Shown: positions 3,097-25,148, numbered from the stretch's first letter. The stretch is DNA of 64,000 nt from Candidatus Daviesbacteria bacterium (GCA_028715175.1 JAQUSJ010000002.1:92117-156116); one strand, 5' to 3'. A program made the numbers and translations. Notes: generated from the sequence alone by a model not told the origin.

Positions 3097-3960
3097 ATGG
3101 CTATCAAACAAATTGACGAAAGTATAGAAGAAGGAGAATCCTTAAAAGCGATTGCCCAGGCCTATTCTGAAATTTCCAACCTTAAAATCAAAAGGATCAG
3201 GACTCAAGTAGAAAGAAATCGGGTATTTTTTGATGAAATCCTGCAAGTTTACGCTATAGTCCGGGCTTTTGCCCTCTATAAAAAAGTGGCCGTAGTTAAG
3301 CCTAAAAAAAGACTCTGTATACTGCTTACTTCAAATTATAGATTCTACGGCGCTATCAATTCTTCCTTAACCAACTATTTCACCGGCTCAACCAGAGAGC
3401 TTCAGGATGTAGATAAACTAATCATAGGCAAAGGCGGCATTAACTATTTCAGGAGTAGCAAACTGCTGCCGTCTTACCGGGAAATGCTTTTAAAAGACGA
3501 TATGCCAACAGGAGAAGAACTCACCAGTTTGGCTAATTTAAGCACCAATTACAACCAGGTGCTGGTATTTCATGCCAAAATGAAAAGTCTGCTCATCCAG
3601 GTGGCCACCTTCACCGATGTTACAGCCACATCTCTTTATACCAGGGAATTTTATATCAAAGCTTTTGATACCAGGAAAAAAGAAAATATGATGCGCTTTA
3701 TTTTTGAGCCGGAATTACCTAAGATATTGAATTTTTTTGAAACCCAGATCATCACCCTGCTTCTTGAACAAACCTTTCTGGAATCAGAGCTGTCAAGAAC
3801 TGCCTCGCGTTTTATTGCCATGGATTCTGCTGAAACCGAGGCTAATAAATTTATTAAAGAATACCAGAAAATGAAAGCGCTGGCTAAACGAAACCTGGAT
3901 AATAATGCAATTTTGGAAAACTTTGCCGCTATGACGGCTATAAGAAAGGAGGGTTACAAA

Positions 3961-3963: not shown

Positions 3964-5471
<1,508 letters not shown>

Positions 5472-9000: not shown

Positions 9001-12000
9001 ACTAATCTAACCAATGCAGGTTTATGGACAAATGGAGACGGATTGCTTTTAACCACCGGAGGAACTAATACTTCAGGGATTACTGTAACCGGAGCCGGTA
9101 ATATTGGGATAGGAACCACTTCGCCTGCGTATAAACTGGATGTGGTTGGACAAATTAATAGCAGTACAGGTCTCTGTATTAACGGAGATTGTAAAAGTTC
9201 ATGGACAGGATCTGCAGGGTACACCGCCTCAAACGGTATCACACTATCCTCCGTAGACTTCCAGTTAGGCGGTAAGTTAACCAGGGCTACGGGAATTGAT
9301 ATTGCTTCCCAAAACTTTGGCTTTTTGGGTGGCAATGTGGGGATTGGGACAACAAGTCCTCAGACAGCTTTATCACTAAGTTCCGGACAATCTGCAACTG
9401 GCATCTCTCTTTACAACACTGCTGATGAAACAACAAACTATGAGCGGTTAAGAGCGTATTGGAGTAGTAACTATGCTTGGATAGATACTACCAAGGGAGG
9501 TAGCGGAACTAGTCGAGGGTTGATTATTAGCGGGGCAGGTGGACTTTTTCTAAAATCATCAACAAGTGTCTATTTTGATGCTGGCACTTCCTTTATTGTA
9601 GCATCGACTGGAATAACACCTTCTGCTACCATCACCCGGGCTACTGGTTATGCCAGATTTGGTGATGCCACAGCTCCTACCGTATCCTTAGAAGCTGCTA
9701 ATGGTTTCATTGTAGCCGCTGGCAACGTCGGAATTGGAACAACGGGGCCAGGGGCGCCGTTAGCAATAAATGGTGTGGGTAAAGCTAGCACCGATGACCT
9801 GCTTCTGGTTGGTCAAGGGGGAAGTGGACAAATCAGAGTCAGACACATTGAGGGAAAGCAGTCTGACAGCGACAACTATGGAGACTTATACCTCAATTAT
9901 AACTCAACGGGAAATGTCCTCTTAGTACGTGGCGGTGGTAATGTTGGGATTGGGACAATTTCTCCTACTGGTAAATTAATAGTTTCAGGAGGCAATGTTG
10001 GCATTGGAGTATCTACACCTCTCACTGCTTTAGCAGTTAACGGAGGAGGAACTATTGGCTGGGGTTTAACAGGAGTAGCAGGACCAACTAATGGATTGGC
10101 TGTATCTGGAAATGTAGGGATAGGAACTTCCAGTCCCAGCACTTTTAACCTGGAGGTAGCTGGAAATATTGGGCCGGAAGCAGACAGCACCAGAGATATT
10201 GGCTCTCCCAGCCGCTACTATGCCAACATTTATGCCAAAAATTTGATCACCGGCACTTCCGGTAATGTTGGATATTGGACCAGAACAGGTACTACTCTCT
10301 CTCCGGTTACAGCCGGTGACAACGTTTCTTTAACCGGCTCATATTCCTCTACCCCGGCCACAGACACACCAGCCATAACTTTAACCGGCACCAATGTTGC
10401 AACTTCTAACCTGGCCTACTTTAATGCCAAAAATACTTCCGGCACGATTTTTAATATCGCTTACGGAGCAGCAACAACTCTAACAGGAGATTTAGTCGGC
10501 ACCAGTATTGATTTAAATGACGGCAAAGTTACTGACAGCACTCACTCAATCACGGGATTTTATACTAAACTGCCAACAATCACAGCTGATAATGCCACCG
10601 GTATTGTTTCCTTAAAAGGATTATCTGTATTCTTTGGCACCGGCTCCGGTATTAATGAAACAGGGGCCGGGGCGCTCACTTACACTGCAGCTGATTTGTC
10701 AATGCCGGCTTTAACCCAAACTGCCGGAACTTTAACTGCCAACGGAGTTCTAATCACAACGCCTTTATCTATTACTACCGGCGGAACAGCCAACGGAGTC
10801 AATATTTCTCCAACAGGCGTGGGGGCGGGAACTTTAAATGCAATTAATATCGGCACAATCTCTCCCCTGGGGGGCACAGAAAATGCCATAGCAGTTGGGA
10901 CAGGCTGGGATAATGTCTTAAAAGTTGGTTCAACCACAGTCATTAACGGATCAGGTGTTACCCAGGTGGCAGGAGGAGGAACCGGCATTGCCACCTATAA
11001 TGTAGGTGACTTGCTTTATGCTTCAGGCGCCACCACTTTCACCAATATAGGCATTGGCACATCAGGACAGGTCTTAACAACAACAGCCGGAGTACCGATC
11101 TGGGGCAATGTTAACGGCTCCTCTTGTACCAACTGTCTGGTTAATAACCCGACTTCCACTCAGAATATCTCTCCCACAGGACAAACTACTACCGGTTTAT
11201 CTGTCAGGCAAACCTCAACCGGCTCCCCCACCCAGGACATCTTTAATGTCACCTCTTCAGACGGGGTTACCAAATACTTCTATGTAGACAGCAGCGGCAA
11301 TGTCTCAACAGGCGGAGTTGCTTCTCAAACCCTCACTTTAACCCCTACCTCTGATACTACCGCTTTAACCCTGGTGGGAACAAATGTAGCAACTTCTAAG
11401 CTGGCCTACTTTAATGCCAAAAATTTACAGGGCACTATCTTTGATATCTCTTATGGAGCTTCTGCTACTTTAAGGGCCAATCAAACATTAACAGGCCAAA
11501 ACATTGACCTTTCCACCAATGTTTCGGTCGGCGCCGGCAGTACAAATCCCATCTCGGTAACTGGCTTTGCCTTAACCATGCCGGCTCCCACCAACACCAA
11601 TACCTCCGGCACCAATGCCTTAAAGGGGCTGGTTATCACAGCCGGATCCGGCATTAACCAAAACGGCGCAGGCGGCACAACCACTTTTTCCGGAGTTGAT
11701 GTGACTATTCCCCCTCTTACTCAAACCGCCGGCACTTTAACCGGTAACGGAGTTTTAATAACCACTCCTTCCTCCATTACCACCGGAGGCACAGCCAATG
11801 GCTTAAATATCTCACCCACCGGAGTAGGCGCAGGAACGCTGAATGGCATAAACATTGGCAATATCACTGCCGGATCAGGAACTGAAACAGCTATCAATGT
11901 GGGAACAGGCTGGGATTATGGCCTTTATTCTCAAACTACCAATCCTTCCTATTTTGCCGGTAATGTTGGGATTGGAACAACAACACCGGGAGCCACACTA

Positions 12001-15000
12001 GAGGTTGCTGGCTCTCAAACCATCGGATCAGCAGCTTCCACCTCTAGTATTTTAAGACTCTTTGGAAGCGTTGGTTATGGTGAGCTTCGTATAGGAAATT
12101 CTGACACTTATAACTGGCGAATGATGAGGGAAAATCAAACTACTGGCAGATTAGACTTTATTCCCAGCACAGGCTCTCTAGGATCAACCCCAACATTAAC
12201 TCTTCTAACTGGTGGTAATATCGGCATTGGCTTTACTTCTCCTAATGCCCTGCTTCATATTGGAGGGGCTGATCAAACTACTTCTGCTTATGGTATTAAG
12301 ATGGGATCTGATATTACACTTTACAGATCAGCTACAAATACACTCAAAACAGATAATAATTTTGTGGTTGGAGGATCATTAACTACAGCCGGACTGACTA
12401 ATACCAGCCAATTCCTGGCAGCTAATGGAACTGCAGCTCTTCCCTCTTACTCTTTTACTAATCTAACTAATGCCGGATTATGGACTAATGGAAACGGACT
12501 ACTGTTAACTACAAACGGATCCAATACCTCAGGTATAACTGTAACAGGAGCAGGACTGGTTGGCATTGGGACAACTGCTCCTGTCTATGCTCTTGATATT
12601 GTTGGTAACTCTAGCTTATGGCAATCAGTTTATGGCACTGATGATGGTTTGGTAGGTTACTGGGATTTTTCAGAAGGAACAGGCACCAAAGCTTATGACA
12701 AAAGTCCTTATGGAAATGACGGCACAATTACTGCCGGCGCTGGTGGCTGGACAACCGGCAAATACGGAAATGCCTATGATTTTGATGGTGCCTCTGACGG
12801 TTCAGGCACTTATATTGATGTAGGAAATAAAATTACGGCAAGTAATTTGTCCAGCCTAACCATTGAAGCATGGTTAAAAAGGGATGCTATATCTCCTGCA
12901 GCAGAAGATCATATAATTTCCAACTGGACTGGTACTTATCATTTTGGCACTACTTCCAACAAGTTTTCAATCTATCTATATAACACTACTCCCACCCAAG
13001 GTAGTGTAACAGGAACAACTACTGTTACCAATGGTGTTTGGTATCATGTTGTTACCACCTACGATGGTTCAAAAATCAGAATCTATGTTAACGGCGTAGA
13101 AGAAAATTCAACAGATTTCTCTGGTAGTCTGCGTTCAAGCTCAACTACCACAAAAATTGGCGCCGGCGGAAGTTATCCAGGAGCTTGGGCAAGTTATCTG
13201 TTCAATGGCAAAATTGACGAACCAAGGATTTACACTCGGGCCCTATCAGCTGATGAAGTCAAAGCTCACTATTTAAGAGGAAGTAGTAATACGGCTGTAA
13301 CCATGAATACCTCTACCACAGCAGGAACTGTTTATGGCTTAAGAGGAGTAGTCACAGATACAGGAATAGTTACTACTGGCACAGATACCGCTTATGGTTC
13401 AAGAATTGATGTCACCCGAACAGGAGCAACCGGAGGAACCCTCAATACTTATGGACAATATCTTAACTTAACAACTGACAATGCCGGAGGCGGTACTCAT
13501 AATGCTTATGGTTTGTATGTTGCTTTAGATGGCAATGCAGACAATAATTATGCAGCGGTATTTACCGGAGGCAATGTCGGTATTGGGACAACTTCACCTG
13601 GGGCAAAATTAGCAGTGATTGGCAATGTTGGTATTGGCACTTCTGCTGCCGGAGCAGCGCTGCAGGTTAATGGCGGAGGTTTGTTTGGTTGGGGCACTAC
13701 TTCCATAGCAGGACCTTCTAATGGTTTAGCTGTATTTGGAAATGTTGGTATAGGTACTACCTCCCCTACTAATCCTTTAACAGTTATAGGCAATGCCAAT
13801 ATCGCCGGCACTTTAACTACAGCCGGACTTACCAATACCGGCCAATTCCTGGCTGCTAATGGTACTGCAGCTCTTCCCTCTTATTCTTTCTCAAATCTAA
13901 CTAATGCAGGTTTATGGACTAATGGGAATGGATTACTCTTGACTACAGGAGGAACCAATACTTCAGGAATTACTGTTACAGGAGCCGGAAATGTTGGAAT
14001 CGGGACAACCAGCCCAATAGGACAGCTTGCTCTGGGAACATACCAGGGAGGCACGGGAAGCAGTATTGTGGCCGCTTATGGTAAGCAGTTGACTTTAACA
14101 GGCGCTTTTAATGCTGGTTATAACACCGGCTCTCAAATTAAATTAATGATTAATGACTACAGCAATGATGGAGGAGATGATATCTATCCTATCTATGCCG
14201 AAGATGAGAATAACGGAGTTGATTTTTACATCAGAAATCAGGCAGGCACCAGAACAGCTTATTTCGGTGGCAACGTCGGAATTGGGGCAACTACGCCTGA
14301 GGCAAAACTTCATGTAGTCGGAACGTTAAGAACAGATAGCACTATTACAGCATATGTTAACGGTATTGATAATGCACCTATAACAATGGACTATTATAAC
14401 GGCAGGTACAGGATTGAATCGTATAAGTTAGCCACATCAGGACAGATAATGAGTATTAATGAAACTCTCCACGCTGTAATGTGGGGCAATGTGGGGATTG
14501 GAACACAGTCTCCTGCCAGCAAGCTTCATCTGCTTGGTTCAGGAGCTACTACTGCTCCCACCTTCATGACTCAAAACTCTACCTCTACCAACTTTGGCCT
14601 GGCAGTTTTGGATAATGGCAATGTAGGTATTGGGACGACGAGTCCGACATCTACCTTTGAAGTGGCGGCTTCCAAAACCATTAACTTTAACTCCAGTCCG
14701 GTTAGCAATCTAGTTTTAGGCAGTAATATGAGTGCCGGTAATTATAACATCACAAGTGTTAACCAATTAACAATAAACTCAACTAACGGAATAAACCGAG
14801 ATGTAGATAATAGCTATTTAAATTTGATGGGTGGGACTAACTGGTCTAGCGGCGGCGGCGCAGCAGTGTTGATTGCCGGAAAAGACCTTGCGGGTCAAAC
14901 AGGAAATGTTCGTGTTTATACTCCTAATGCGGCTGGAAGTAGCGGGCTTGAACGCCTAAATATTGGTGGACTCGCTACTACTGCTAATTTCATCATTTCA

Positions 15001-18000
15001 AATAGTAACGTTGGCATCGGGACACAGTCTCCTGTAGGAAAACTTCATCTGCTTGGTTCAGGGACTACTACTGCTCCCACCTTCATGACTCAAAACTCTA
15101 CGTCCACCAACTTTGGCCTGGCAGTTTTGGATAATGGCAATGTAGGTATTGGGACAACTAACCCAACAGAAAAATTATCAATACGAAGCTCTGCTGTTAG
15201 TACAAATGCATTTTCTTCAGTAGCTAATTCTGATGCATCTACATTTGTCTCTTTATATGGAGGGACTAATACTAATGAAGCTGCTATTATTTGGTCAAAT
15301 ACTTCCGGAAAAGCATTGCGTTTTGGAGTAGGAAATGATCCTTCTGCTTCAGGTGCATGGTCAGAAAAAATGCGGATTACAACCGCAGGCAATCTCGGTA
15401 TTGGCTTTACCTCTCCAGATAGACTACTTCAGATAGGGTCTGATATAAATATCACTGGTACTGCTGCTTCTATCTTAGGGGCTAATGGAACACAGTTTAG
15501 TATTACCGGCTCTACAGCCAATACCCTCCATAAAAAATTAACTCTGGGAATAGATACCACTGATAATTATGGTGTTATCCAGGCTGGAAATACAGACGGA
15601 ACAACATATAATTTAGCCCTAAATCCAGCCGGAGGCAATGTCGGGATAGGGACAACAGCGCTCAATTCTAAACTTCAAGTTGCATCTAGTTATAGCGGCA
15701 GCTATGGGGACAGTACAATTTATGGCTCATATTTTAACATGAACCTTAGTAGTGTTACCAATGCTACCAAAAATGGTTTATACAGCTTAGTAAACGGAAC
15801 TGTCGGCTATAATGGATACACCAATGCTATTTTAGGAGAAGTAAGCACAACAGGAACACAGAATAATGGAGTAATTGGCGTTTACGGATACTCTCACGCA
15901 ACCAGCAGTGAAGGTAATTATGGGCTTAAAGGTTATGCTAATAGTGGAGGATATACAAATGCCGGTATCTGGGCAGCAGTAGATGGAACAGGAGCCTCCT
16001 CAGGTGGTTATAATCCCAGTGCTCGTAACGGAAACTACGCTTTTTACGGCACAGCAACCACTACCGGAGCCGGTGCCACCAATGTAGGACTTTATGTCTC
16101 AGCCTCAGGAGCAGGTACGAATTACGCCGCCATTTTTGATCAAGGCAATGTCGGCATCGGGACGACAGCACCAGGATATAAATTATCGATCGCTGGCGAT
16201 GTAATTGTGGGCCAAACAACAGCAGGGACTTTGAGAATAAGTGAATCTGGTGATCCAACCAATAGAGATAGAGACTATGTATTTAATGGTTCCGCCAACT
16301 TACTAACTTTAAAACGTTCAGATGATGCGGGAGCTGGTTTCAATATTACAAATACAGGATCTATTGGCATCGGGACAGTGGGGCCAGCAATAAACCTAGC
16401 TATTGGTGATACCGATACCGGGTTAAAGTGGGTCTCTGACGGAATCATCACCATGTACGGCAACAATCAGGAACTTGCTCGGTTCGATGGGGATGGGACT
16501 CAAGGTGTGGAGCTTTGGATTAGCCAAGGAGCAAATACAGAACGCCTTTGTCATGCTGCCGGAGATGTAACAGCTCAAAGAGCCCTGATAGACGATTGTA
16601 GTGGTACCCCCGGAGATTATGCCGAAGAGTATGGTACCACAGATGTAAGCATCGAATCAGGGGATATTGTCATGGTCGACAAAACAAGATCAGCTCAGGA
16701 AATTGAAAAAGATGGGCTTAAAGGGTCAAAGGCCTGGATAGTCAAATCAAATAAATCATACCAGGATAGTATTATAGGCGTCATTTCTACTAACCCTAAT
16801 GAGGTAATTGGAAAGAATTTTGAGCCAGAAGAAAATCCCAGACCAGTATCTTTAAACGGTAGAGTTCCGGTTAAAGTTAGTACTGAAAACGGGCCTGTTG
16901 AGGTTGGAGATTATCTGACTTCATCTTCTGTTCCAGGAGTAAGTATGAAAGCGACTAAACCTGGTCCAGTTGTAGGTAAAGCATTGGAAGGCTATAACAA
17001 TCCTGATCCCACAGTAGTTGGCAAAATCTTAGTATTTATCAATATCTCATGGGTAGATCCCAACTATTCCCTGACAGCAGCAGCTACTTTGTCTTTGGAT
17101 GTAAACGGCAATCTCAATCTGACTTCACCATCGCTGACCTCTCCCTCTCTGACTCTTACTCCTACAGGCAACGTTGGCATTGGCACCTCCAGTCCGTCTG
17201 CAGCTTTGGATGTAGTGGGAAATGCTACCATCAGTGGCAGAATCTCCTCGGGGGTGGGCTTTGACTCCCCCGAGGTGAATACTCCGCTTTTGGACTTAGG
17301 CCCGGCCAGCATTGCTTCCTCCTCATCCGGCCTGGCTATCCAATTTGCAACTGACAACATGGGAGGTATACCAACTACATTCCAAATCAAGAACTCTTTA
17401 GGGCAAAACTTATTCCAGATTGACGCTTCAGGATCAGCAAAATTGGCCGGGACCATTACCACAGAAGCCGGAGCCTTTGATGTAGCAGAAGATTACAATG
17501 TAGCTGATGATTCAATTGAAGCAGGAGATGTAGTTAGTATAGACGATGGAAAATCGAGTATGGAAGATGGAATTTCGAAGATAGAAAATGGAAGTTTGAA
17601 TGAAGTAAGTCCATCTTCTACCATCAATCCTCAAAATACTACCCTCAATCCTCCATCATCTACCGTCGAAAAATCCTCAAAACCTTATGACAATAAGGTA
17701 GTCGGTATTATCTCCACCAAACCGGCAATAACTTTACAAAACAAACCAGGTTTGAATTCAGACAAACCTGGTTTGAGCACAAAACCGGTAGCTCTGGCCG
17801 GCAGAGTACCTGTGAAAGTTTCAACAGAAAACGGAATAATTGAAAAAGGAGATTATTTAACTTCCTCTTCAATTCCCGGGGTAGCAATGAAAGCTACCAG
17901 ACCTGGTCAAGTTATAGGAAAAGCATTAGAAGCTTTCAGCTGTCAGTCTTCAGCTATCAGCCGGACAGAAAATAGTCTGACAGCTGACAGCGAAGCGGTA

Positions 18001-19203
18001 CTGACGACTGAAAGCTGTCAAGGCAAAATCTTAATGTTTATTAATGTTGCTTTTGCCGACCCCGGCAACTTCTTTGCCTCTCTATCCTGGGATGAGCAAG
18101 GTAATCTGATAATTCCCAAGATCAAAACAAACTCATTAATGCTGGATCCGTCCGTTGCCTCTGCTTCCAGCCAATTAACTATTAACAATGAACAATTAAC
18201 TATTAACTCCGATCCCAACTTTATCTCCCCTGGTCCAAATCTGGCATCAAATACCAATAACTATATAGATTTATCAGGAGAGATAGCTTCTTTGGAGGAT
18301 AGAATCAAGAATCTAGAGTCTAGAGTCAAGGAACAGAATCAAGAAATCACTAGACTCTCGACTCTGGCAACTAGCAACTCCTCATCAGGTAATGTTGGAA
18401 TAGGAACAACTGAGCTTTCAGTCGTCAGCCCTCAGTCGTCAGACTCAGCTCAAATTGCTTCATCCTCTTCCAGTCTGACAGCTGATAGCCGACAGCTGAC
18501 ATCTGATTTGCACCTCACTCCTCCTGATATCCTGCTAACCACCGGTTCTGCCGTATTTACCAACTTGACTGTTAAATCAGAAGCCACTATGTCCGGACAA
18601 CTTAGCATCTATGACCTGTCAGTCTCAAATACTCTTAAGTCTTTGGGCAAAACTACTCTGGCCGACACCTTAATTGCCGGAGATCTGATGATAGACGGAA
18701 CAATGTCTATATCCGGAAACTCGATTAACTCCTCGGGGGTGGGCCTTGACTCCCCCGAGGTGAGTAACGGCACTCTATATCTGCAAAATTCTACCCTGGC
18801 CCAGGGCCTGGACATCTTCAATGGCAAAGTAACCATAGATCCCGCAGGAAATATAACAACTCAAGGCAAAGTTATTGCTTCTGAGGTTAAAACCAACAAG
18901 CTGACTATTTCCAATACACCAATAGCTACCTCCTCTGCGAACACACCAGGGGCGGGCTTTGACTCCCCTGGTGTGAACGGAGCCTCAATCGGCACAACAA
19001 CCTTACCTGCAGGAGCGACCGCTGTCACTATCCAGACTGCCCAAATAAGCGAGAGCGCTAAAGTCTTTATCACTCCAATAAGCCCGACAGACAAAGTTCT
19101 GTCTGTTACAGATATTAAACCGGGTACAAGCTTTGATGTTTCGATGCTTACCCCATCCCAGACAGATATTAAGTTTAACTGGTGGATAGTAGAAAGCAAA
19201 TAG
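6010..19203 (+). CDS. Giant (4397 aa) membrane-anchored surface protein: N-terminal MerR-type HTH, one TM helix, G-N-V-G-I-G-T repeat modules, LamG/ConA-like lectin domain, duplicated C-terminal modules
   Basis: Uninterrupted 13.2 kb ORF. IGQAAKLLGVSIDTLRRWEKAGKI...GGTRLY is MerR-like. TM helix LLVGSVFLSIITLLITSWITA. LamG-like GLVGYWDFSEGTGTKAYDKSPYGNDGTI...GKIDEPRIYTRALSADEV. More than 40 copies of NVGIGT. Confidence 0.8.
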   Translation: MSDPSTTKPLLKIGQAAKLLGVSIDTLRRWEKAGKITAIRTPGGTRLYHLSQLKKVNPASVEDFQAKSFTTEELLKKTEIQTVDDRQWKIGVEDRNWTIDDQSSTIHLQKSTFNPLSSIVNKLLVGSVFLSIITLLITSWITASYLTNPNQTQQFFKNNIASGLFSPFHKLAEVAVAEISPAQAKILGFIPPDEPPPLIISQQPNKSSAVLAVTSLLPFLEVNADTQINGSLFVRDSVNGLNMEATSSASSMALTSGDTTLTVTKDALLDQDVSTTAAPTFNTLNLSATKDQLVFQSGGPTGTLTWTPTATRTITLPDVTTTLVGKDTTDTLTNKSLSGSSNTLTNIPNSALTNSKVTVTAGTNLTGGGDISLGSSATIALKDSPSITGTLTVGGTTTLSGATTLSSTLAVTGAATFSSTITAGGVVKLTDGTAAAPALTFTSDTDTGLYRIGTNKIGLITAGTATSGITIDENGNVGIGTISPTSQLQTTGNVGIGGSASITSLLSANGSAAVTGSFCLNGDCKSSWTGIGGYTASNGITLSSTDFQLGGNLTRATGIDIAGQNFGFLGGNVGIGTTNPNYQLETTGNVGIGGSLTVTSTGVFGSIQDNGSLVVSGTSYLQGILGSTLTTTGNIGIGGSASIASNLNAGSLTVTGLSSLANVNTSAINASSLTTTGNITSQGTFLAANGTASAPGYSFTNLTNAGLWTNGDGLLLTTGGTNTSGITVTGAGNVGIGTTIPGATLEVAGSQTIGSASSISSILRLFGSIGYGEFRIGSSDIYNWRMMRENATTGRLDFIPSTGSLGSIPTLTLLTDGNVGIGTTSPNYKLDVVGQINSSTGLCIDGDCKTSWSGSAGYTASNGITLTGVDFQLGGSLTRATGIDIASQNFGFLGGNVGIGKSNPSYALDVLGTGYFSGFLGVGSSMNVAGNVGIGGTAAITSLTQANGGLTVTGASILQALTATDINAATLTATGNITSQGTFLAANGTASAPGYSFTNLTNAGLWTNGDGLLLTTGGTNTSGITVTGAGNIGIGTTSPAYKLDVVGQINSSTGLCINGDCKSSWTGSAGYTASNGITLSSVDFQLGGKLTRATGIDIASQNFGFLGGNVGIGTTSPQTALSLSSGQSATGISLYNTADETTNYERLRAYWSSNYAWIDTTKGGSGTSRGLIISGAGGLFLKSSTSVYFDAGTSFIVASTGITPSATITRATGYARFGDATAPTVSLEAANGFIVAAGNVGIGTTGPGAPLAINGVGKASTDDLLLVGQGGSGQIRVRHIEGKQSDSDNYGDLYLNYNSTGNVLLVRGGGNVGIGTISPTGKLIVSGGNVGIGVSTPLTALAVNGGGTIGWGLTGVAGPTNGLAVSGNVGIGTSSPSTFNLEVAGNIGPEADSTRDIGSPSRYYANIYAKNLITGTSGNVGYWTRTGTTLSPVTAGDNVSLTGSYSSTPATDTPAITLTGTNVATSNLAYFNAKNTSGTIFNIAYGAATTLTGDLVGTSIDLNDGKVTDSTHSITGFYTKLPTITADNATGIVSLKGLSVFFGTGSGINETGAGALTYTAADLSMPALTQTAGTLTANGVLITTPLSITTGGTANGVNISPTGVGAGTLNAINIGTISPLGGTENAIAVGTGWDNVLKVGSTTVINGSGVTQVAGGGTGIATYNVGDLLYASGATTFTNIGIGTSGQVLTTTAGVPIWGNVNGSSCTNCLVNNPTSTQNISPTGQTTTGLSVRQTSTGSPTQDIFNVTSSDGVTKYFYVDSSGNVSTGGVASQTLTLTPTSDTTALTLVGTNVATSKLAYFNAKNLQGTIFDISYGASATLRANQTLTGQNIDLSTNVSVGAGSTNPISVTGFALTMPAPTNTNTSGTNALKGLVITAGSGINQNGAGGTTTFSGVDVTIPPLTQTAGTLTGNGVLITTPSSITTGGTANGLNISPTGVGAGTLNGINIGNITAGSGTETAINVGTGWDYGLYSQTTNPSYFAGNVGIGTTTPGATLEVAGSQTIGSAASTSSILRLFGSVGYGELRIGNSDTYNWRMMRENQTTGRLDFIPSTGSLGSTPTLTLLTGGNIGIGFTSPNALLHIGGADQTTSAYGIKMGSDITLYRSATNTLKTDNNFVVGGSLTTAGLTNTSQFLAANGTAALPSYSFTNLTNAGLWTNGNGLLLTTNGSNTSGITVTGAGLVGIGTTAPVYALDIVGNSSLWQSVYGTDDGLVGYWDFSEGTGTKAYDKSPYGNDGTITAGAGGWTTGKYGNAYDFDGASDGSGTYIDVGNKITASNLSSLTIEAWLKRDAISPAAEDHIISNWTGTYHFGTTSNKFSIYLYNTTPTQGSVTGTTTVTNGVWYHVVTTYDGSKIRIYVNGVEENSTDFSGSLRSSSTTTKIGAGGSYPGAWASYLFNGKIDEPRIYTRALSADEVKAHYLRGSSNTAVTMNTSTTAGTVYGLRGVVTDTGIVTTGTDTAYGSRIDVTRTGATGGTLNTYGQYLNLTTDNAGGGTHNAYGLYVALDGNADNNYAAVFTGGNVGIGTTSPGAKLAVIGNVGIGTSAAGAALQVNGGGLFGWGTTSIAGPSNGLAVFGNVGIGTTSPTNPLTVIGNANIAGTLTTAGLTNTGQFLAANGTAALPSYSFSNLTNAGLWTNGNGLLLTTGGTNTSGITVTGAGNVGIGTTSPIGQLALGTYQGGTGSSIVAAYGKQLTLTGAFNAGYNTGSQIKLMINDYSNDGGDDIYPIYAEDENNGVDFYIRNQAGTRTAYFGGNVGIGATTPEAKLHVVGTLRTDSTITAYVNGIDNAPITMDYYNGRYRIESYKLATSGQIMSINETLHAVMWGNVGIGTQSPASKLHLLGSGATTAPTFMTQNSTSTNFGLAVLDNGNVGIGTTSPTSTFEVAASKTINFNSSPVSNLVLGSNMSAGNYNITSVNQLTINSTNGINRDVDNSYLNLMGGTNWSSGGGAAVLIAGKDLAGQTGNVRVYTPNAAGSSGLERLNIGGLATTANFIISNSNVGIGTQSPVGKLHLLGSGTTTAPTFMTQNSTSTNFGLAVLDNGNVGIGTTNPTEKLSIRSSAVSTNAFSSVANSDASTFVSLYGGTNTNEAAIIWSNTSGKALRFGVGNDPSASGAWSEKMRITTAGNLGIGFTSPDRLLQIGSDINITGTAASILGANGTQFSITGSTANTLHKKLTLGIDTTDNYGVIQAGNTDGTTYNLALNPAGGNVGIGTTALNSKLQVASSYSGSYGDSTIYGSYFNMNLSSVTNATKNGLYSLVNGTVGYNGYTNAILGEVSTTGTQNNGVIGVYGYSHATSSEGNYGLKGYANSGGYTNAGIWAAVDGTGASSGGYNPSARNGNYAFYGTATTTGAGATNVGLYVSASGAGTNYAAIFDQGNVGIGTTAPGYKLSIAGDVIVGQTTAGTLRISESGDPTNRDRDYVFNGSANLLTLKRSDDAGAGFNITNTGSIGIGTVGPAINLAIGDTDTGLKWVSDGIITMYGNNQELARFDGDGTQGVELWISQGANTERLCHAAGDVTAQRALIDDCSGTPGDYAEEYGTTDVSIESGDIVMVDKTRSAQEIEKDGLKGSKAWIVKSNKSYQDSIIGVISTNPNEVIGKNFEPEENPRPVSLNGRVPVKVSTENGPVEVGDYLTSSSVPGVSMKATKPGPVVGKALEGYNNPDPTVVGKILVFINISWVDPNYSLTAAATLSLDVNGNLNLTSPSLTSPSLTLTPTGNVGIGTSSPSAALDVVGNATISGRISSGVGFDSPEVNTPLLDLGPASIASSSSGLAIQFATDNMGGIPTTFQIKNSLGQNLFQIDASGSAKLAGTITTEAGAFDVAEDYNVADDSIEAGDVVSIDDGKSSMEDGISKIENGSLNEVSPSSTINPQNTTLNPPSSTVEKSSKPYDNKVVGIISTKPAITLQNKPGLNSDKPGLSTKPVALAGRVPVKVSTENGIIEKGDYLTSSSIPGVAMKATRPGQVIGKALEAFSCQSSAISRTENSLTADSEAVLTTESCQGKILMFINVAFADPGNFFASLSWDEQGNLIIPKIKTNSLMLDPSVASASSQLTINNEQLTINSDPNFISPGPNLASNTNNYIDLSGEIASLEDRIKNLESRVKEQNQEITRLSTLATSNSSSGNVGIGTTELSVVSPQSSDSAQIASSSSSLTADSRQLTSDLHLTPPDILLTTGSAVFTNLTVKSEATMSGQLSIYDLSVSNTLKSLGKTTLADTLIAGDLMIDGTMSISGNSINSSGVGLDSPEVSNGTLYLQNSTLAQGLDIFNGKVTIDPAGNITTQGKVIASEVKTNKLTISNTPIATSSANTPGAGFDSPGVNGASIGTTTLPAGATAVTIQTAQISESAKVFITPISPTDKVLSVTDIKPGTSFDVSMLTPSQTDIKFNWWIVESK
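17246..17277. repeat. Family-D perfect hairpin (CCTCGGGGGTGGGCTTTGACTCCCCCGAGGTG), in frame in the giant gene (SGVGFDSPEV)
   Basis: 9-10-bp GC-rich stem read directly. Confidence 0.75.
17931..18017. repeat. Family-A element inserted in frame inside the giant gene (encodes AFSCQSSAISRTENSLTADSEAVLTTESCQ)
   Basis: The paralogous module at 16980-17040 has GYNNPDPTVV at the equivalent position. Confidence 0.75.
18414..18506. repeat. Family-A element inserted in frame inside the giant gene (encodes ELSVVSPQSSDSAQIASSSSSLTADSRQLTSD)
   Basis: gagctttcagtcgtcagccctcagtcgtcagac...agtctgacagctgatagccgacagctgac. Confidence 0.7.
18731..18762. repeat. Family-D hairpin in frame in the giant gene (SGVGLDSPEV)
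   Basis: cctcgggggtgggccttgactcccccgaggtg. Confidence 0.75.
18947..18974. repeat. Family-D hairpin variant in frame in the giant gene (PGAGFDSPGV)
   Basis: ccaggggcgggctttgactcccctggtg. Confidence 0.6.
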
Positions 19204-19210
19204 GACCTAT

Positions 19211-19789
19211 ATGACAGATACGACCTATCCGACAGATCAAAAGAAAACGCACGGCGGTTACCGTAACCTCCGATCTTTCCAAACTGCCACCCTTATATAT
19301 GACCTGACTGTCGAATTTTGCGATCGTTATATGACCTATCCGACTAATAAGTCTTATAGGACCTATGATCAAATGGTGCAAGCGGCAAGGAGCGGCAGAC
19401 AAAACATTGCTGAAGGTTCCCAAGCCTCCGCCGTCTCTAAAAAATCAGAAATCAAACTGGTAGGAGTAGCCAGAGCTTCACTGGAAGAGCTACTTATAGA
19501 CTACGAGGATTTTTTAAGACAACGGTCTTTGCCTCTTTGGAGCAAAGGTTGCCCCCAGGCTCAAACTATTAGGAATCTGACGTATAAGACGGATAAGACT
19601 TATACGACCTATCAGACCTATCTTAAAAATCCTGAATCTGCAGCTAATTGCTTAATCTGCCTGATTCATCAAGCTAATTATCTTTTAGACAAACAACTTC
19701 AGGCTTTAGAAAAAGCCTTTATTACCCAAGGCGGTTATTCTGAAAATCTCTTTAAAGCCCGCCTGAAAAAGAGGGAATCAGACCGATGA
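19211..19789 (+). CDS. Four-helix-bundle protein (23S rRNA IVS-protein family) with repeat-derived N-terminus
   Basis: NIAEGSQAS...VARASLEELLIDYEDFL matches the NIAEG...IARGSL.EL motif of four-helix-bundle proteins. The N-terminal TYPT/TYKTDKTYTTYQTY peptides are encoded by gacctat/taagtc repeats. Confidence 0.5.
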   Translation: MTDTTYPTDQKKTHGGYRNLRSFQTATLIYDLTVEFCDRYMTYPTNKSYRTYDQMVQAARSGRQNIAEGSQASAVSKKSEIKLVGVARASLEELLIDYEDFLRQRSLPLWSKGCPQAQTIRNLTYKTDKTYTTYQTYLKNPESAANCLICLIHQANYLLDKQLQALEKAFITQGGYSENLFKARLKKRESDR

Positions 19790-19872
19790 GACCTATAGGA
19801 CTAATAAGACTTAGTTTGATATATTTAACACCAGTTGCAAAGCTCGGTTAAATTTGACTAAACTGATATATT

Positions 19873-22230
19873 ATGGAAGAATTACAAGGTTTACGCAAAA
19901 CAGTAAACAATTATTTAGGCTTAATTTTTAAAATTGGTTTATGTCTGGTAATACTCTCTTCTTTCTTCTTCTTCACCAACCTGACAACCGAAATGTTTGA
20001 CAGCGCAAAATTTGTAGTACTAATAATTTTTACCGGATTGCTCCTGGTGCTTTTGACCTTAAAATTTACAATTGCCGACAAAGTTACATTTGTTAGAACT
20101 CCACTGGATATCCCCCTGATATTGCTTCTTGTAGTCGGCATTGTTTCTACCTTTCTCTCGTCGGCCCCTTATGTTGCTCTACTCGGCAATCAGCTTAAAA
20201 TTCACGGAAGCTTAGTTTCTCTGGCTGTATACATTTTGTTTTATTTTATCCTGGTTAATAATTTAAAAAATATAAAGAATATCCGGTGGATTTTTACCTT
20301 AACGATAGTCGCCTCACAGGTACTCGCAGTTGCAAGTCTTCTAACATATAGCGGGGTTAAAATACTACCCGGTCCATGGGTACACGGAATTAACTTCACC
20401 CCGACAGGCTCTAACTTTTCCACAACTGCTATTCTGGCGCTTCTAATACCTTTTATTGTGATACAGATCCTAACCTCTTCTAAGCCAATATTACTTATTC
20501 TTAACTCCTTATTCTTGCTTTTATCCGGACTGGCAATTGCCTTAACAGGCACATGGGCAACATGGATTGGAGCTTTGGTTGCTCTTTTACTAACTGTTGC
20601 AGCAATCGCTCCGATCAGACAAATAAGTCGGATTAGACCTATTAGTCTGATAGGACTAATCGGACCTATAAGTCTAATAGGACTAATTACAGCTCTTTCT
20701 TTTATCCCACCTTTAAGCGGGGTTAAAAATCCCATCTATACCCAGGCGCAAAACTTTCCCAGGGAAATACAGTTATCCTTTGTAGATTCCTGGAAAATAT
20801 CTGTTTCTGCTTTTCGGGATTCACCTTTTTGGGGCACCGGACCGGCTTCTTTTAGCTTTGATTTCACAAATTATAAACCGGTTGAATTTAATACTTCCAA
20901 ATTCTGGAATCTAAGATTTGACTTACCGTTTAATGAATACTTACAAGTCTTAGCCAGCTTGGGAGGTATTGGTTTGGTAGCGCTACTATCCTTAACAGCA
21001 TTATTTATTTCTTCGGCATATCAGACCTATATGACTTATCGGTCCGATAGGTCTTATTCGGAAAGCGAAAAAGTCACCCTCGCAATCTCCGGTCTGATTT
21101 TCTTTATTATATTAGCCCTGCATTCGGCAACCTTAAGCGTGTGGGTAATTGGTCTTTTGGTCTTAGCCTCTTTCATGGTGATTAACCAGGAAAACAATCC
21201 CGGTTTGTTTTCTTTCAAACCGGGATTGAATGAGCAGAATAATTTTAAAAACATGTTTTTGAAAATTGCCGGAAACATCAGTAATCCGGAATCTTTAAAA
21301 GAAACCATCAGGATAGATGCGCTACCCGGGATCTTGTTGACAATTGCCCTGGCTTTGGTATTATTTGCAGGTTTCTTTGGAGGAAAATTTGTACTGGCAG
21401 ATTACTACCACAGATTAGCGCTAAATGCAGTCGCGGAAAACCAGGGTATTGTTGCTTATAACAACTTAATAGCGGCAGAAAAACTTAATCCATATAATGA
21501 CGTGTACCGGACAGATCTAGCGCAGACCAATTTTGCCCTGGCAAATGCCATAGCAACGGCCAAAGCTCCAACCGAAGCTTCACCATCAGGTTCGCTAACA
21601 GACCAGGACAAACAAAATATCCAGATTCTGCTCCAGCAGTCAATATCTGAAGCAAGAACTGCCGTCACCTTAAGTCCGAAATCAGCAATAAATTGGGAGA
21701 TACTGGCGATGCTCTACAGACAAATTTCCGGCGTTGCCCAAAATGCGCTGGTTTTCTCTCTTGACGCCTACGGCAGAGCAATCTTTCAGGATCCTCTAAA
21801 CCCCAATTTAAGAGTTAGTGTTGGCGGTGTCTATTATGCGGTTAAAAATTATGACATGGCAATCAGGTTCTTTACAGATTCCATAAATTTAAAGCCTGAT
21901 TTTACCAACGGATACTACAATTTATCTGTTGCTCTCCGGGATAAGGGAGATTTAACTAATGCACAGGCTCTGGCGGAAAAATTACTGACATTAATAGACA
22001 AATCTTCGCCTGATTATAAAACAGTAAGCGATTATCTTGACGATTTGAAAAGTCGGGTAGCATCCGGCAGCACTAAAGAGTCGGAAATTCAACCTCCTGC
22101 TTCGAAAGAAACCGGCGCGCTTCAGCAAAAAGAGTTGCCAAAAGTAGTTGATGTGGGTAATCCCCCAAATAATATTGCCACCCCGTCTGCCGTCAAAAAA
22201 CCCAACCCTACCCCAACACCAAAACCATAA
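19873..22230 (+). CDS. Polytopic membrane protein, O-antigen ligase (Wzy_C)-like with C-terminal TPR repeats
   Basis: About 10 hydrophobic helices followed by TPR-like repeats (AIRFFTDSINLKPDFTNGYYNLSVALRDKGDLTNA). Contains the repeat-encoded IRQISRIRPISLIGLIGPISLIGLI. Confidence 0.55.
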   Translation: MEELQGLRKTVNNYLGLIFKIGLCLVILSSFFFFTNLTTEMFDSAKFVVLIIFTGLLLVLLTLKFTIADKVTFVRTPLDIPLILLLVVGIVSTFLSSAPYVALLGNQLKIHGSLVSLAVYILFYFILVNNLKNIKNIRWIFTLTIVASQVLAVASLLTYSGVKILPGPWVHGINFTPTGSNFSTTAILALLIPFIVIQILTSSKPILLILNSLFLLLSGLAIALTGTWATWIGALVALLLTVAAIAPIRQISRIRPISLIGLIGPISLIGLITALSFIPPLSGVKNPIYTQAQNFPREIQLSFVDSWKISVSAFRDSPFWGTGPASFSFDFTNYKPVEFNTSKFWNLRFDLPFNEYLQVLASLGGIGLVALLSLTALFISSAYQTYMTYRSDRSYSESEKVTLAISGLIFFIILALHSATLSVWVIGLLVLASFMVINQENNPGLFSFKPGLNEQNNFKNMFLKIAGNISNPESLKETIRIDALPGILLTIALALVLFAGFFGGKFVLADYYHRLALNAVAENQGIVAYNNLIAAEKLNPYNDVYRTDLAQTNFALANAIATAKAPTEASPSGSLTDQDKQNIQILLQQSISEARTAVTLSPKSAINWEILAMLYRQISGVAQNALVFSLDAYGRAIFQDPLNPNLRVSVGGVYYAVKNYDMAIRFFTDSINLKPDFTNGYYNLSVALRDKGDLTNAQALAEKLLTLIDKSSPDYKTVSDYLDDLKSRVASGSTKESEIQPPASKETGALQQKELPKVVDVGNPPNNIATPSAVKKPNPTPTPKP

Positions 22231-22237
22231 AAAGGAG

Positions 22238-22310
22238 TGGACTCACCGAGAATCGAACTCGAAACTGTACAATGCGAATGTACCGGTATACCATTTACCT
22301 ATGAGCCCAT
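22238..22310 (-). tRNA. tRNA-Ala (CGC)
   Basis: Cloverleaf folded by eye. Acceptor GGGCTCA/TGAGTCC with G3:U70; anticodon loop TTCGCAT; T-loop GTTCGATTC. Confidence 0.6.
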
Positions 22311-22354
22311 TAATCCCTTGCTACATGCTACCAGCTGCTTACTAACAACTCTTG

Positions 22355-22427
22355 TGGACCGTACCGGGCTCGAACCGGTCACCTTCTGACTGCCAGCCAG
22401 ACGCTCTACCAAATGAGCTAACGGCCC
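22355..22427 (-). tRNA. tRNA-Ala (GGC)
   Basis: Acceptor GGGCCGT/ACGGTCC with G3:U70; anticodon loop CTGGCAG; T-arm ACCGGTTCGAGCCCGGT. Confidence 0.65.
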
Positions 22428-22526
22428 TTCTTTATAATTATACCAGGATTTACGCATTTTGTGCGTAGATTCTTATAAAACTCGTGCGTAATTGCGTAAG
22501 TCCTGTTATTAGTCTAATTTGACCTA

Positions 22527-23645
22527 TTATTTTAAAATAGCCAGCGGATTCAAAGCCACCCCTCTATAGCGGATTTCCAAATGTAAATGAGTGCCTGTTG
22601 ACCTACCTGTTGAACCCATTTGTCCAATTAGCTGCCCCCTGGAAACAGTCTGTCCGGCGGAAACATAAACATTGGAAAGATGAGCGTATAAAGAAGTATA
22701 ACCATTACCATGATCAATCACCACTCTGTTGCCATAACCTGTGCTGTCCGGCCAGCCGGCCACAATAATCGTACCGCCGTCTGAAGCCGCAATGCCCGGA
22801 ACGCTTCTGTTAGCCACATCAATTCCCGGATGATACCATGAGTAGTATTGGCTTAACATACCTCCTGCAGGCCAGATAAAAACACCTCCTCCGGGCGCTG
22901 TAAAGGCCGGTGACTCCGGCCCCTGCGCCAGATACTGTGGTTGAGGTTTTGGTTTAGGCGGCAATTTTGTCTCAGGCGGCGACCCGTCAGGAATAATTAA
23001 CACTTGTCCTGCTTTTAAGCTAAAATCATCCGGAACATCATTAAACGGAAAATCCACTATGGCTTGTTGTTCCGCGGAATTTTTTTTGGCAACAGATTCC
23101 AAGGTATCGCCTGCTTTTACAATATAAGATACACCGGTTACAGGCAAAATCTTCAAAATTTGACCCGGCTTTATGATATCTCCTGTTAAATTATTCTCCC
23201 ATTTAATAGTCTCGCTCGAGATATTGAATTTAACAGCAATCGAAGAGAGAGTGTCCCCGTTCTCCACTTTGTATTCGATGGTTTCAGAACGCGGTTTCTC
23301 GCTAACATTGGTATGCAGGTCTGCTGATCCACTGACAACCGGGCCATTTGGAAAAGGTTCAAAAGCTTCAGTGAATCTTGGATCCGGCCCGCCTATGCCC
23401 GGAAAAGTGGAAGAAATCAAACTCTGTCCTCCGAATACGCCTGATGTTAAGATCCCGATTGAAACAAGACCAACCATAGATCCATGCCAAAATTTTTTCT
23501 GGTGCGCTCCGCGCTCATACATTAGAGCATCTTTCACAATGTTTTTAGCTCCTTCAAAATTATGCGCAAAATACTTTATTTTACGTTTGGAGTACCAGAT
23601 TAGGGCACGAAAGAGGGCCTGGAGATCGTCTGCTAAAGAATTCAC
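22527..23645 (-). CDS. M23 family peptidase with two LysM domains
   Basis: LysM-like YKVENGDTLSSIAVKF and YIVKAGDTLESVAKKN. C-terminal M23 motifs HPGIDVA...GYGNRVVIDHGNGYTSLYAHL...GSTGRSTGTHLHLEIR. Confidence 0.8.
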   Translation of the reverse strand: MNSLADDLQALFRALIWYSKRKIKYFAHNFEGAKNIVKDALMYERGAHQKKFWHGSMVGLVSIGILTSGVFGGQSLISSTFPGIGGPDPRFTEAFEPFPNGPVVSGSADLHTNVSEKPRSETIEYKVENGDTLSSIAVKFNISSETIKWENNLTGDIIKPGQILKILPVTGVSYIVKAGDTLESVAKKNSAEQQAIVDFPFNDVPDDFSLKAGQVLIIPDGSPPETKLPPKPKPQPQYLAQGPESPAFTAPGGGVFIWPAGGMLSQYYSWYHPGIDVANRSVPGIAASDGGTIIVAGWPDSTGYGNRVVIDHGNGYTSLYAHLSNVYVSAGQTVSRGQLIGQMGSTGRSTGTHLHLEIRYRGVALNPLAILK

Positions 23646-23763: not shown

Positions 23764-25148
23764 TTAACATCTTTCAATGTCTTTAAGAATTCATCATTAG
23801 ATTCAGCCTTGGCTAACCTTTCCAGGAAAATCTCTGTTTTTTCATTCTCATTCAATATCCCGATCATCCTTCTCATGATGATCATTTGCTTGTAAGTATC
23901 TTCCGGAAAAAGCAGCTGCTCCTGTCTGGTACCTGAAGCTTCAATATCTATTGCCGGGAAAATTCTTCTTTCGGCAAGTTTTCGATCCAGATGCAACTCC
24001 ATATTGCCTGTACCCTTAAATTCCTCATAAATTAAATCATCCATCCTGGAGCCTGTATCAACCAGGGCTGTACCAATTATTGTTAACGACCCGCCTTCCT
24101 CACAGTTCCTTGCAGCCCCGAAAAAGTGTTTCGGAGGGTAAAGAGCCACCGGATCAAATCCGCCCGATAAGGTCCTTCCGGAGGGCGGTACAGACAAGTT
24201 ATATGCCCGCCCGAGGCGGGTAATCGAGTCTAACAGGATAACAACGTCCTTACCGCTTTCAACAAGCCTTTTGGCCCGCTCCAGGGCTATTTCGGCAGCT
24301 GTGGTTTGAGCCTCAGCCGGTTCATCAAAATTGCTGGCTATAACATCACCTTTGATAGACCGGGACAGATCTGTCACTTCTTCCGGTCTCTCACCTACCA
24401 AAACCGCCATAAGTATTACGTCGGGATGATTTTTGGCAACACCGGTAGCAATATCTTTTAAGATAGTGGTTTTACCTGCTTTTGGCGGTGAAACAATTAA
24501 ACCCCTCTGACCAAATCCGATCGGCGCCACCAAATCTATCACCCGCTGACTAAAAGGGGTTTTGCCTGTTTCAAGTTTTAAGTGTTTGTTAGGATAAATC
24601 GCTGTCAAATCCTCAAATTTCGGCCGCTTGACCGGTCTGCCCTCGGAAGATATTAATTTATCCGCATTTTCTCCATTTACTTTATTGACCTGCAGCAGTC
24701 CAAAATATCTTTCAGTTTCTTTGGGGGGCCTGGCTGCTCCTTCGACAAAATCGCCCGAACGTAACCAAAACCTTCTGATCTGGCTGGCGGAAATATATAC
24801 ATCTGCATCTGAGGGTATATATTTAGGTCTAAGAAACCCATGACCTTCTGACATAATATCCAGGACACCGGAAACTTCTTCTGTGGGTACATCACGGTCT
24901 GAGTAACGGTTACCATTAGAATAGCCGTTACGGACGTTAGATGATGGAGAATAGAGGGTAGATCTTTGAGGATAGAAATTAGAAGGTGGATTACTTTCAT
25001 TCGATCCTCCATTTTCCATCTTCGAAGTACTATCTTCTACCATCGATTTTCCATCGTCTGTCTGCTGTGGCTCTCCCACCAACTCCTCAGCCGATACTGT
25101 TTCGTCTGACGACTGATGTGGTTTAAATGATTTTGTTACACGAGGCAT
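23760..25148 (-). CDS. rho: Transcription termination factor Rho (with N-terminal extension)
   Basis: RNA-binding region [15 protein letters not shown]; Walker [19 protein letters not shown]; [33 protein letters not shown]. Confidence 0.85.

Follow-up and report, generated by a model that had tools for sequence, protein, structure and literature searches.

The DNA considered here is a stretch of 64,000 nucleotides from Candidatus Daviesbacteria (candidate phyla radiation, CPR, or Patescibacteria; GCA_028715175.1 JAQUSJ010000002.1:92117-156116), referred to below as the window; its proteins are identical to NCBI entries from metagenome-assembled genomes. It harbors a family of 9-bp tandem repeats, the nonamer arrays, that clusters on and around one small gene. 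This gene (gene 1, 19211-19789, plus strand) encodes a 192-aa four-helix-bundle protein with a suffix domain. Upstream lies a giant open reading frame (ORF) of 4397 aa (6010-19203), and downstream is gene 2 (19873-22230, plus strand), whose 785-aa product is an O-antigen-ligase-like (Wzy_C) membrane protein with C-terminal TPR repeats; two of the arrays are found within it. Gene 2 is followed by two minus-strand tRNA-Ala genes, a LysM/M23 peptidase gene and rho. The giant ORF, gene 1, gene 2 and the LysM/M23 and Rho reading frames are the only ORFs between 6010 and 25148.

An earlier note on this DNA had described short units densely reiterated at several sites from 19200 onwards, and these clusters are all present: heptamers of the form GWCYTAT/ATARGWC number 27 in 19190-22540, where about 1.5 would be expected, and this interval also holds 11 of the window's 13 copies of GACCTAT. 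Heptamer spacings are multiples of 9 throughout, which rules out separate heptamer families. GACCTAT, ATAGGAC and TAAGTCT are partly overlapping readings of a single degenerate, dyad-symmetric 9-bp unit, A1 T2 N N G5 W6 C7 N N. In the tandem form (...GWC NN AT NN GWC...) the units stand head to tail as a chain of overlapping palindromes, and GACCTAT and ATAGGTC are for this reason both found on one strand. The window contains six arrays of 4-9 units between 19200 and 21055, plus a decayed remnant at 22497-22530. There is no other run of three or more units on the plus strand of the 64 kb, the minus strand has one weak match near 31369, and 20 shuffles of the sequence gave no run of this length. 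The nonamer family is local, occupying about 3.3 kb around one gene, and is not dispersed over the genome.

Array A (19200-19235) consists of four units, ATAGGACCT ATATGACAG ATACGACCT ATCCGACAG, and holds two boundary codons, the TAG (19201-19203) that ends the giant ORF and the ATG (19211) that opens gene 1. Array B (19329-19364, 4 units) encodes loop 1 of the gene 1 protein (YMTYPTNKSYRTY), between helices 1 and 2, and array C (19575-19619, 5 units) encodes loop 2 (LTYKTDKTYTTYQTY), ahead of the last long helix; the latter is the most conserved array position of the gene 1 family. Array D (19777-19812, 4 units) spans the last codons of gene 1, its stop codon (TGA, 19787-19789) and the 3' flank. 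The remaining two arrays lie in gene 2. Array E (20605-20685), the longest with 9 units, is read as I-x-x (IAPIRQISRIRPISLIGLIGPISLIGL) and covers a short loop between transmembrane (TM) helices together with the first half of a conserved TM helix, and array F (21020-21055, 4 units) is read as [Y/D]-x-[T/S] (YQTYMTYRSDRSY) in a hydrophilic loop. A single unit (ATTTGACTA, 19853-19861) is found in the 5' leader of gene 2. Remnant G (22497-22530), between the tRNA-Ala genes and the LysM/M23 gene, retains two perfect units (ATTAGTCTA ATTTGACCT) and an off-register one (GTAAGTCCT). The sites listed earlier therefore exist, with two corrections: the interval 19200-19330 holds two arrays, A and B, and the tRNA-flanking site comprises only these three units. 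The translations quoted there are correct, and a single repeat family does run in frame through two adjacent genes as well as through non-coding DNA.

Because 9 bases equal three codons, the arrays can be read in any frame that is free of stop codons. The arrays in gene 1 and array F use the frame (NAT)(NNG)(WCN), giving [Y/D/N/H]-x-[T/S], and array E uses a different one, (ATN)(NGW)(CNN), giving I-x-x. With this unit length, changes in copy number keep the reading frame, unlike the frame-shifting repeats of phase-variable contingency loci. Nor do the arrays of the window encode collagen-like Gly-X-Y peptides, as they specify [Y/D/N/H]-x-[T/S] or I-x-x.

The gene 1 product is a four-helix-bundle suffix-domain protein (TIGR04258 plus TIGR02436/PF05635). 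Its scores exceed the cut-offs of TIGR04258 (71.8 bits, cut-off 40) and TIGR02436 (36.6, cut-off 24) and fall just short of that of PF05635 (33.1 against 33.8); a scan of Pfam and NCBIfam found four-helix-bundle families only. The AlphaFold2 model is a helical bundle (pLDDT 81) with long helices at residues 21-40, 49-72, 77-104 and 141-172, and its best Foldseek matches in the PDB are 2gsc (probability 1.00) and 2rld, both PF05635 proteins. PADLOC, PHROGs and a sequence search of the PDB were uninformative for the gene and its arrays. To our knowledge, the only characterised relative of PF05635/TIGR04258 proteins is Avd, the cofactor of diversity-generating retroelements (DGR). The family is large and is found in CPR bacteria and at least ten other phyla; at 90% identity it comprises more than 8000 clusters, and at 50% identity 292 with E <= 1e-30. 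Members are 65-86% identical within the CPR and 53-66% identical across phyla (Proteobacteria, Acidobacteriota, Nitrospirota, Planctomycetota, Verrucomicrobiota, Armatimonadota and others).

The peptides encoded by the repeats (MTYKTDKTY..., YMTYxTNKSYRTY, AYKTDKTYETYxSY and C-terminal KTN or RSN tails) occur at the same positions throughout this family. Three or more consecutive [Y/D/N/H]-x-[T/S] tripeptides are present in 120 of 120 close homologs and in 71 of 150 distant cluster representatives, against none of 150 shuffled sequences. Given this positional conservation, the repeats of gene 1 are ancestral and family-wide rather than recent insertions. The proposal that a repeat is spreading inside ORFs thus applies to the arrays of gene 2, which are lineage-specific, and not to the peptides of gene 1; nor does the repeat take the form of dispersed heptamers. 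Fusion to a topoisomerase-type C4 zinc ribbon (PF01396) is seen in 16 of 84 family members, mostly through an array-coded linker (DRTDRSDPTD...; loci L036, L038, L039, L042, L043, L047, L048, L049, L055, L058, L064, L068, L073, L074, L075 and L079), and another array often follows the fusion. These zinc ribbons hint at DNA binding.

The association between gene and arrays was examined in 80 homologous loci from over ten phyla, with GC contents of 31-70%. Of these loci, 60 have arrays inside the gene, for the most part at the loop-2 position, 29 have them in the 300 bp upstream and 21 in the 300 bp downstream. Per 10 kb there are 16.6 arrays in the gene itself and 17.9 in the DNA up to 150 bp from it, falling to 1.2 at 150-300 bp, 0-0.3 at 0.3-2 kb and about 0.05 beyond 2 kb; in shuffled loci the value is 0. 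The gene and its immediate flanks are thereby some 350-fold richer in arrays than DNA more than 2 kb away. Nonamer arrays are the hallmark of a widespread cassette, which consists of one small four-helix-bundle suffix gene with arrays at its 5' end, in the segments coding for loops and at its 3' end. This connection to the cassette, on which the feature turns, is missing from the earlier note. Within proteins they survive only where the protein tolerates them, that is in tails, loops and linkers. The rare distant arrays in other phyla are also in frame within neighboring ORFs (L047, L057).

Across these loci the arrays span 3-13 units and combine a conserved core with a strand-symmetric composition. 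In non-coding flank arrays, at least 95% of 197 units retain A1, and the same holds for T2, G5, W6 and C7, while the N positions track genomic GC, the unit reading ATCGGWCCG where the genome is GC-rich and ATAGGWCCT or ATAAGWCTT where it is AT-rich. The core also prevails at synonymous sites. The tests were run on loop-2 columns defined by the protein alignment and hence are not circular. At GC-rich loci, Y/D/N/H codons end in T in 66% of cases in these columns, compared with 31% in the rest of the gene (p = 1e-16, a value that ignores relatedness); at AT-rich loci, K/E/Q codons end in G in 71% against 41% (p = 5e-4, likewise ignoring relatedness). All GC strata show an effect in this direction. 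The motif thus overrides codon preference against the genomic bias, and the constraint acts at the level of the nucleotide sequence.

This bears on the simplest account, in which the units merely reflect codon usage in low-complexity peptides rich in Tyr, Thr, Ser and Asp, a possibility that the earlier note had named as the one that would undo its case. The regularity of the encoded tripeptides, conserved in every close homolog, would be expected on such grounds. The explanation is refuted by the synonymous sites, where third positions follow the motif against genomic bias, by the non-coding arrays, which include 19790-19812 and 22497-22530 in the window as well as the flanks of the loci counted above, and by array E, where a different frame is used. 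We regard it as close to untenable.

The composition of the arrays is mirrored between strands: position 3 corresponds to the complement of position 9, and position 4 to that of position 8. Within a unit, however, positions 4 and 8 are not complementary. A symmetric site in double-stranded DNA fits this combination better than a hairpin, which is of consequence for a second alternative. The 23S rRNA intervening-sequence (IVS) elements from which the family takes its name are bracketed by stems, and by analogy the self-complementary arrays flanking the ORF could pair in the transcript and be cut by RNase III, releasing or regulating a small mRNA. The unit is indeed quasi-palindromic, and the arrays pair together in the predicted fold of 19170-19840 (z = -3.7). 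Examined three ways, however, the RNA-stem model received no specific support. Positions 4 and 8 of the same unit form Watson-Crick pairs in 29% of cases, with 34% expected, and there are arrays whose units all have an identical W (L060, L038), so that a stem would be mismatched once per 9 nt. Upstream arrays are no more complementary to downstream ones (0.79) than they are directly similar to them (0.82), and W composition is uncorrelated between the two (rho = 0.04). An Rfam search of 18800-22800 returned the two tRNAs alone and no family matching the arrays. Paired stems would moreover leave the arrays of the neighboring gene unexplained, and RNA processing is a very unlikely explanation.

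We favor, tentatively and with a probability of roughly one in three (0.35), the reading that the arrays are cis-acting recognition boxes in double-stranded DNA, that the candidate binder is the cassette's own protein, and that the arrays turn over by slippage and gene conversion. The five fixed positions would be held by selection on the nucleotide sequence, and the arrays would be recognized by a binder with two-fold symmetry. Since nothing else co-occurs consistently with the arrays, the highly conserved, co-inherited protein of the cassette would be the most economical candidate. It may bind cooperatively along the arrays, in the manner of tandem operator boxes. Slippage and gene conversion between arrays would keep the units alike and could seed new arrays nearby, and the arrays may in addition serve as breakpoints for the exchange of whole cassette alleles.

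Sequence exchange among the arrays of one cassette is shown by comparison of coding and flanking arrays. Their similarity at variable positions is 0.53 within a locus, compared with 0.40 for GC-matched pairs from other loci (Wilcoxon p = 2e-6), and loci that have the 'AC' variant (ACNNGTCNG) show it in coding and flanking arrays alike. The arrays of a cassette thus undergo concerted evolution. They are also hotspots of length and sequence variation between relatives, in line with the earlier note, which had proposed a look for strain-level length polymorphism. Concerted evolution and the fast turnover of unit number and sequence would equally be expected of a selfish or neutral minisatellite, in which old low-complexity tails and loops are kept by slippage and gene conversion, hitch-hike in horizontal transfer and are occasionally copied nearby, no factor recognizing them. 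Alleles free of arrays, arrays that have outlasted the loss of the cassette, and the abundance in viral contigs of unrelated 9-bp minisatellites that fit the loose pattern are also in keeping with such an origin. It accounts less well for five positions that stay fixed across phyla, among proteins 53-66% identical and genomes of 31-70% GC, while the four N positions have shifted with GC, or for synonymous sites that resist genomic bias. Molecular drive homogenizes repeats but would not keep an ancestral core in independent lineages. A minisatellite without a recognizing factor is possible, if doubtful.

Several points weigh against recognition boxes bound by the cassette protein. Four-helix bundles are not among the classical sequence-specific DNA binders, and an autoregulator has no obvious need of sites in its own coding loops. 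T2 drifts to C in some GC-rich lineages, and the p-values are inflated by phylogenetic relatedness. Many alleles of the family are array-free (L216, L222, L223, the second copy in L087, and Prevotella), so that the arrays are not essential to the gene. Arrays in gene 2 persist with no cassette within 5 kb in L265, and likewise with none nearby in L232, whereas L238 and L269 have an array-bearing cassette but no arrays in gene 2. With regard to the array-free Prevotella allele, the suffix-domain gene of Prevotella nigrescens (L291, NZ_CP082843.1) is 37% identical and lacks canonical arrays. A 9-bp periodic stretch with a CTAG core lies just 3' of its stop codon (3672-3709) and may be a lineage-specific cognate repeat.

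The whole cassette also seems to be exchangeable. In L091, the closest relative found, the flanks and gene 2 are 90-97% identical to the window at the nucleotide level, but the four-helix-bundle allele (177 aa) is only about 50% identical. Identity between the two collapses at array A (19191) and recovers over the suffix and array D region (19673-19870). L091 thus has another cassette allele swapped in, and the left breakpoint falls on the first array. In relatives with an empty site (L083, L225), an AT-rich spacer alone separates the stop codon of the giant ORF from a conserved box ahead of gene 2, and the cassette occupies exactly this spacer. The box itself, TTGATATAnTTAAyryyAGTTGC, is located at 19813-19837 in the window and stands ahead of gene 2 in every relative (L083, L088, L089, L225, L265 and L081), whether or not the cassette is present; it may be a promoter or leader element. 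In CPR loci (the window at 6010-19203, L006, L026, L037, L044, L054, L083 and L087) the cassette typically follows directly on the stop codon that ends a giant surface-type protein with a LamG/Peptidase_S74-like C-terminus.

These observations would suit a role of the arrays as termini for insertion, excision or swapping of the cassette, comparable to attC or homing systems, solitary arrays being footprints or secondary targets. The gene is indeed found in diverse host loci. In 9-12 of the 80 loci (L012, L013, L020, L022, L024, L078 and others) it is located inside type I-C CRISPR-cas operons, in the gap between cas7 and cas4-cas1-cas2, and type I-C cas genes are the only recurrent neighbors. 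PF05635 genes have likewise been reported as insertions in cas operons and in CPR rRNA insertion sequences (PMC3936711; PMC10910872; 10.1101/2024.02.27.582315). Against such a role, no recombinase, transposase or nuclease domain is found in the cassette or as a recurrent neighbor, no target-site duplication was seen, and arrays occur inside the loops of the gene as well as at its ends. A single replacement pair was examined, with a diffuse right breakpoint (19673-19870). The family has no match in the phage collection and is represented among plasmids by one record only, the distant Prevotella copy. A role as recombination ends is therefore unlikely, although it is compatible with recognition of the arrays by a protein.

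A bolder version, which we consider quite unlikely, joins the two: suffix protein and nonamer arrays would form a self-propagating element, in which the protein recognizes the boxes and promotes, directly or through repair and recombination, both their copying into nearby DNA, in-frame sites included, and the exchange or homing of the cassette.

The Daviesbacteria lineage of the window has acquired additional arrays up to a few kb downstream of its cassette, in the loops of gene 2, its leader and intergenic DNA. Where an array-bearing copy lies next door (the window, L087, L088, L089 and L091), arrays are found at all three kinds of site, the farthest at 3.7 kb in L088. This relative has a 3-unit array (2838-2864) at the spot of the single leader unit of the window, and an intact 4-unit array (5273-5308) at the intergenic spot homologous to remnant G. 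Syntenic loci without the four-helix-bundle gene (L081, L083 and L085) have no arrays in 14 kb. A strict rule that arrays in gene 2 need an adjacent cassette is broken by the four exceptions named above (L265, L232, L238 and L269), which come from a larger metagenomic set.

The loops that hold arrays E and F are hypervariable among 120 orthologs of gene 2. Some orthologs carry array-coded peptides (ISxIRPISLIGLIGPI...; YKTYxTYRSDRSxPE) with differing numbers of units, including three extra units in loop F of P0149, and in others the loops are filled by peptides of other repeat families or by unique sequence. Mean loop length is about equal with and without arrays among close orthologs, which excludes insertions that lengthen the loops. 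An extra TM-like segment, proposed in the earlier note, is accordingly not found: array E occupies a short loop and also the first half of a conserved TM helix, which it overwrites, array F lies in a hydrophilic loop, and ortholog loop lengths are similar. In more distant orthologs (35-48% identity) the E loop is shorter and arrays are lacking; the arrays of gene 2 were therefore gained within a subclade. They are lineage-specific occupants of two hypervariable loops, mostly beside an array-bearing cassette; this is a tendency, not a rule. Compared with L091, the stretch 20971-21234 around array F is hypervariable, with two 15-nt indels and a different palindromic insert. In L091 (about 3270-3340, homologous to 21040-21060 of the window) array F is broken by this in-frame insert (CTGGAGGGAGCGTAGCGA...TCGCTTCGCTCCAG), and the same loop holds HLEGEEMRLHLRGEK, TNHELRT or AEAGSQKSED peptides in other orthologs. 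Immediately 5' of array E, many orthologs have a second 9-bp periodic repeat with the core AT-TT-AAG-NN (L087, about 6730-6770; peptides DLRNLSNLRDLSNL).

A separate in-frame repeat family of the Daviesbacteria genome is represented in the window by an element of about 128 bp. Its two sites are 81% identical, one within the giant ORF (about 17541-17668, plus strand) and one in the N-terminal region of rho (about 24930-25058, minus strand), and it is in frame in both proteins (SKIENGSLNEVSPSS at one site).

Outside cellular genomes the pattern is less telling. A search of viral contigs with a 5-unit pattern gave at least 120 matches, none with a four-helix-bundle gene; the majority are either perfect 9-bp minisatellites or ORFs of the collagen-like GPI type, and the pattern is unspecific there. 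The matches in L143 and L182 were rejected as members of the family, being unrelated GPIGPI ORFs. In three IMG/VR contigs (L209, L118 and L145; GC 57-71%) the arrays are degenerate, in frame (TDRTDRTD, IGPIGRIGPI) and look genuine. As the gene is not on the fetched stretch of these contigs, arrays can exist apart from it.

Several known systems share features with the cassette. The 23S rRNA IVS elements and Avd belong to the same superfamily (PF05635/TIGR02436), and an IVS is likewise a small stand-alone ORF amid self-complementary sequence, found as an insert at unrelated host sites, among them cas operons and CPR rRNA insertions. Unlike an IVS, the cassette is not in an rRNA gene but between a 4397-aa ORF and an O-antigen-ligase gene, and its flanks are tandem 9-bp arrays rather than one long inverted repeat, with further arrays in the loops of the ORF and in neighboring genes. 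It is not a DGR, which combines Avd with a reverse transcriptase and a template/variable repeat pair (TR/VR): no reverse transcriptase or TR/VR pair is nearby, and no reverse transcriptase is a recurrent neighbor in the 80 loci.

Like the repetitive extragenic palindromic (REP) sequences and their REP-associated tyrosine transposases (RAYT; REPINs), the cassette pairs a single-copy gene with short palindromic repeats of its own on either side, and the two show signs of joint travel and evolution. However, a RAYT is an HUH/Y1 transposase, whereas gene 1 encodes a helical bundle without a known catalytic motif. REPs number in the hundreds genome-wide as hairpins of 20-40 nt, in contrast to tandem 9-mers within a few kb of the gene. 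The Rickettsia palindromic elements also place palindromic repeat DNA in frame in ORF loops and surface segments, creating lineage-specific peptides. They are single dispersed elements of 100-150 bp, while the units described here are 9 bp long, form arrays of 36-81 bp tied to one gene and are ancestral in gene 1.

Tandem operator and centromere boxes (the 8-bp met-boxes of MetJ, the 7-bp heptads of the omega protein, the parC iterons of ParR) resemble the arrays in having from 2 to more than 10 dyad-symmetric units head to tail, 5' of the gene of the presumed binder, with few fixed core positions. Their known binders are ribbon-helix-helix dimers. The nonamer arrays have a putative binder, and they are also present in coding sequence and 3' of the gene.

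The gene family and its occurrence in rRNA insertions and cas loci are already known (PMC3936711; PMC10910872; 10.1101/2024.02.27.582315). No description of the nonamer arrays was found in the literature searched, whose coverage was incomplete, this being absence of evidence only; apparently they are undescribed. For annotators, peptides such as 'TYKTDKTY', 'SDRSDRSD' and 'IGPIGLI' can be taken as repeat-encoded. The arrays would be a clean case of nucleotide-level selection writing peptide segments into proteins, including a neighboring, essential-looking membrane protein. A conserved, apparently selected DNA motif that travels with the gene offers a testable handle on what PF05635/TIGR04258 proteins bind and how their cassettes move. 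If the suffix protein and its arrays do form a self-propagating element, this would give a function to the 30-year-old 'IVS protein' family.

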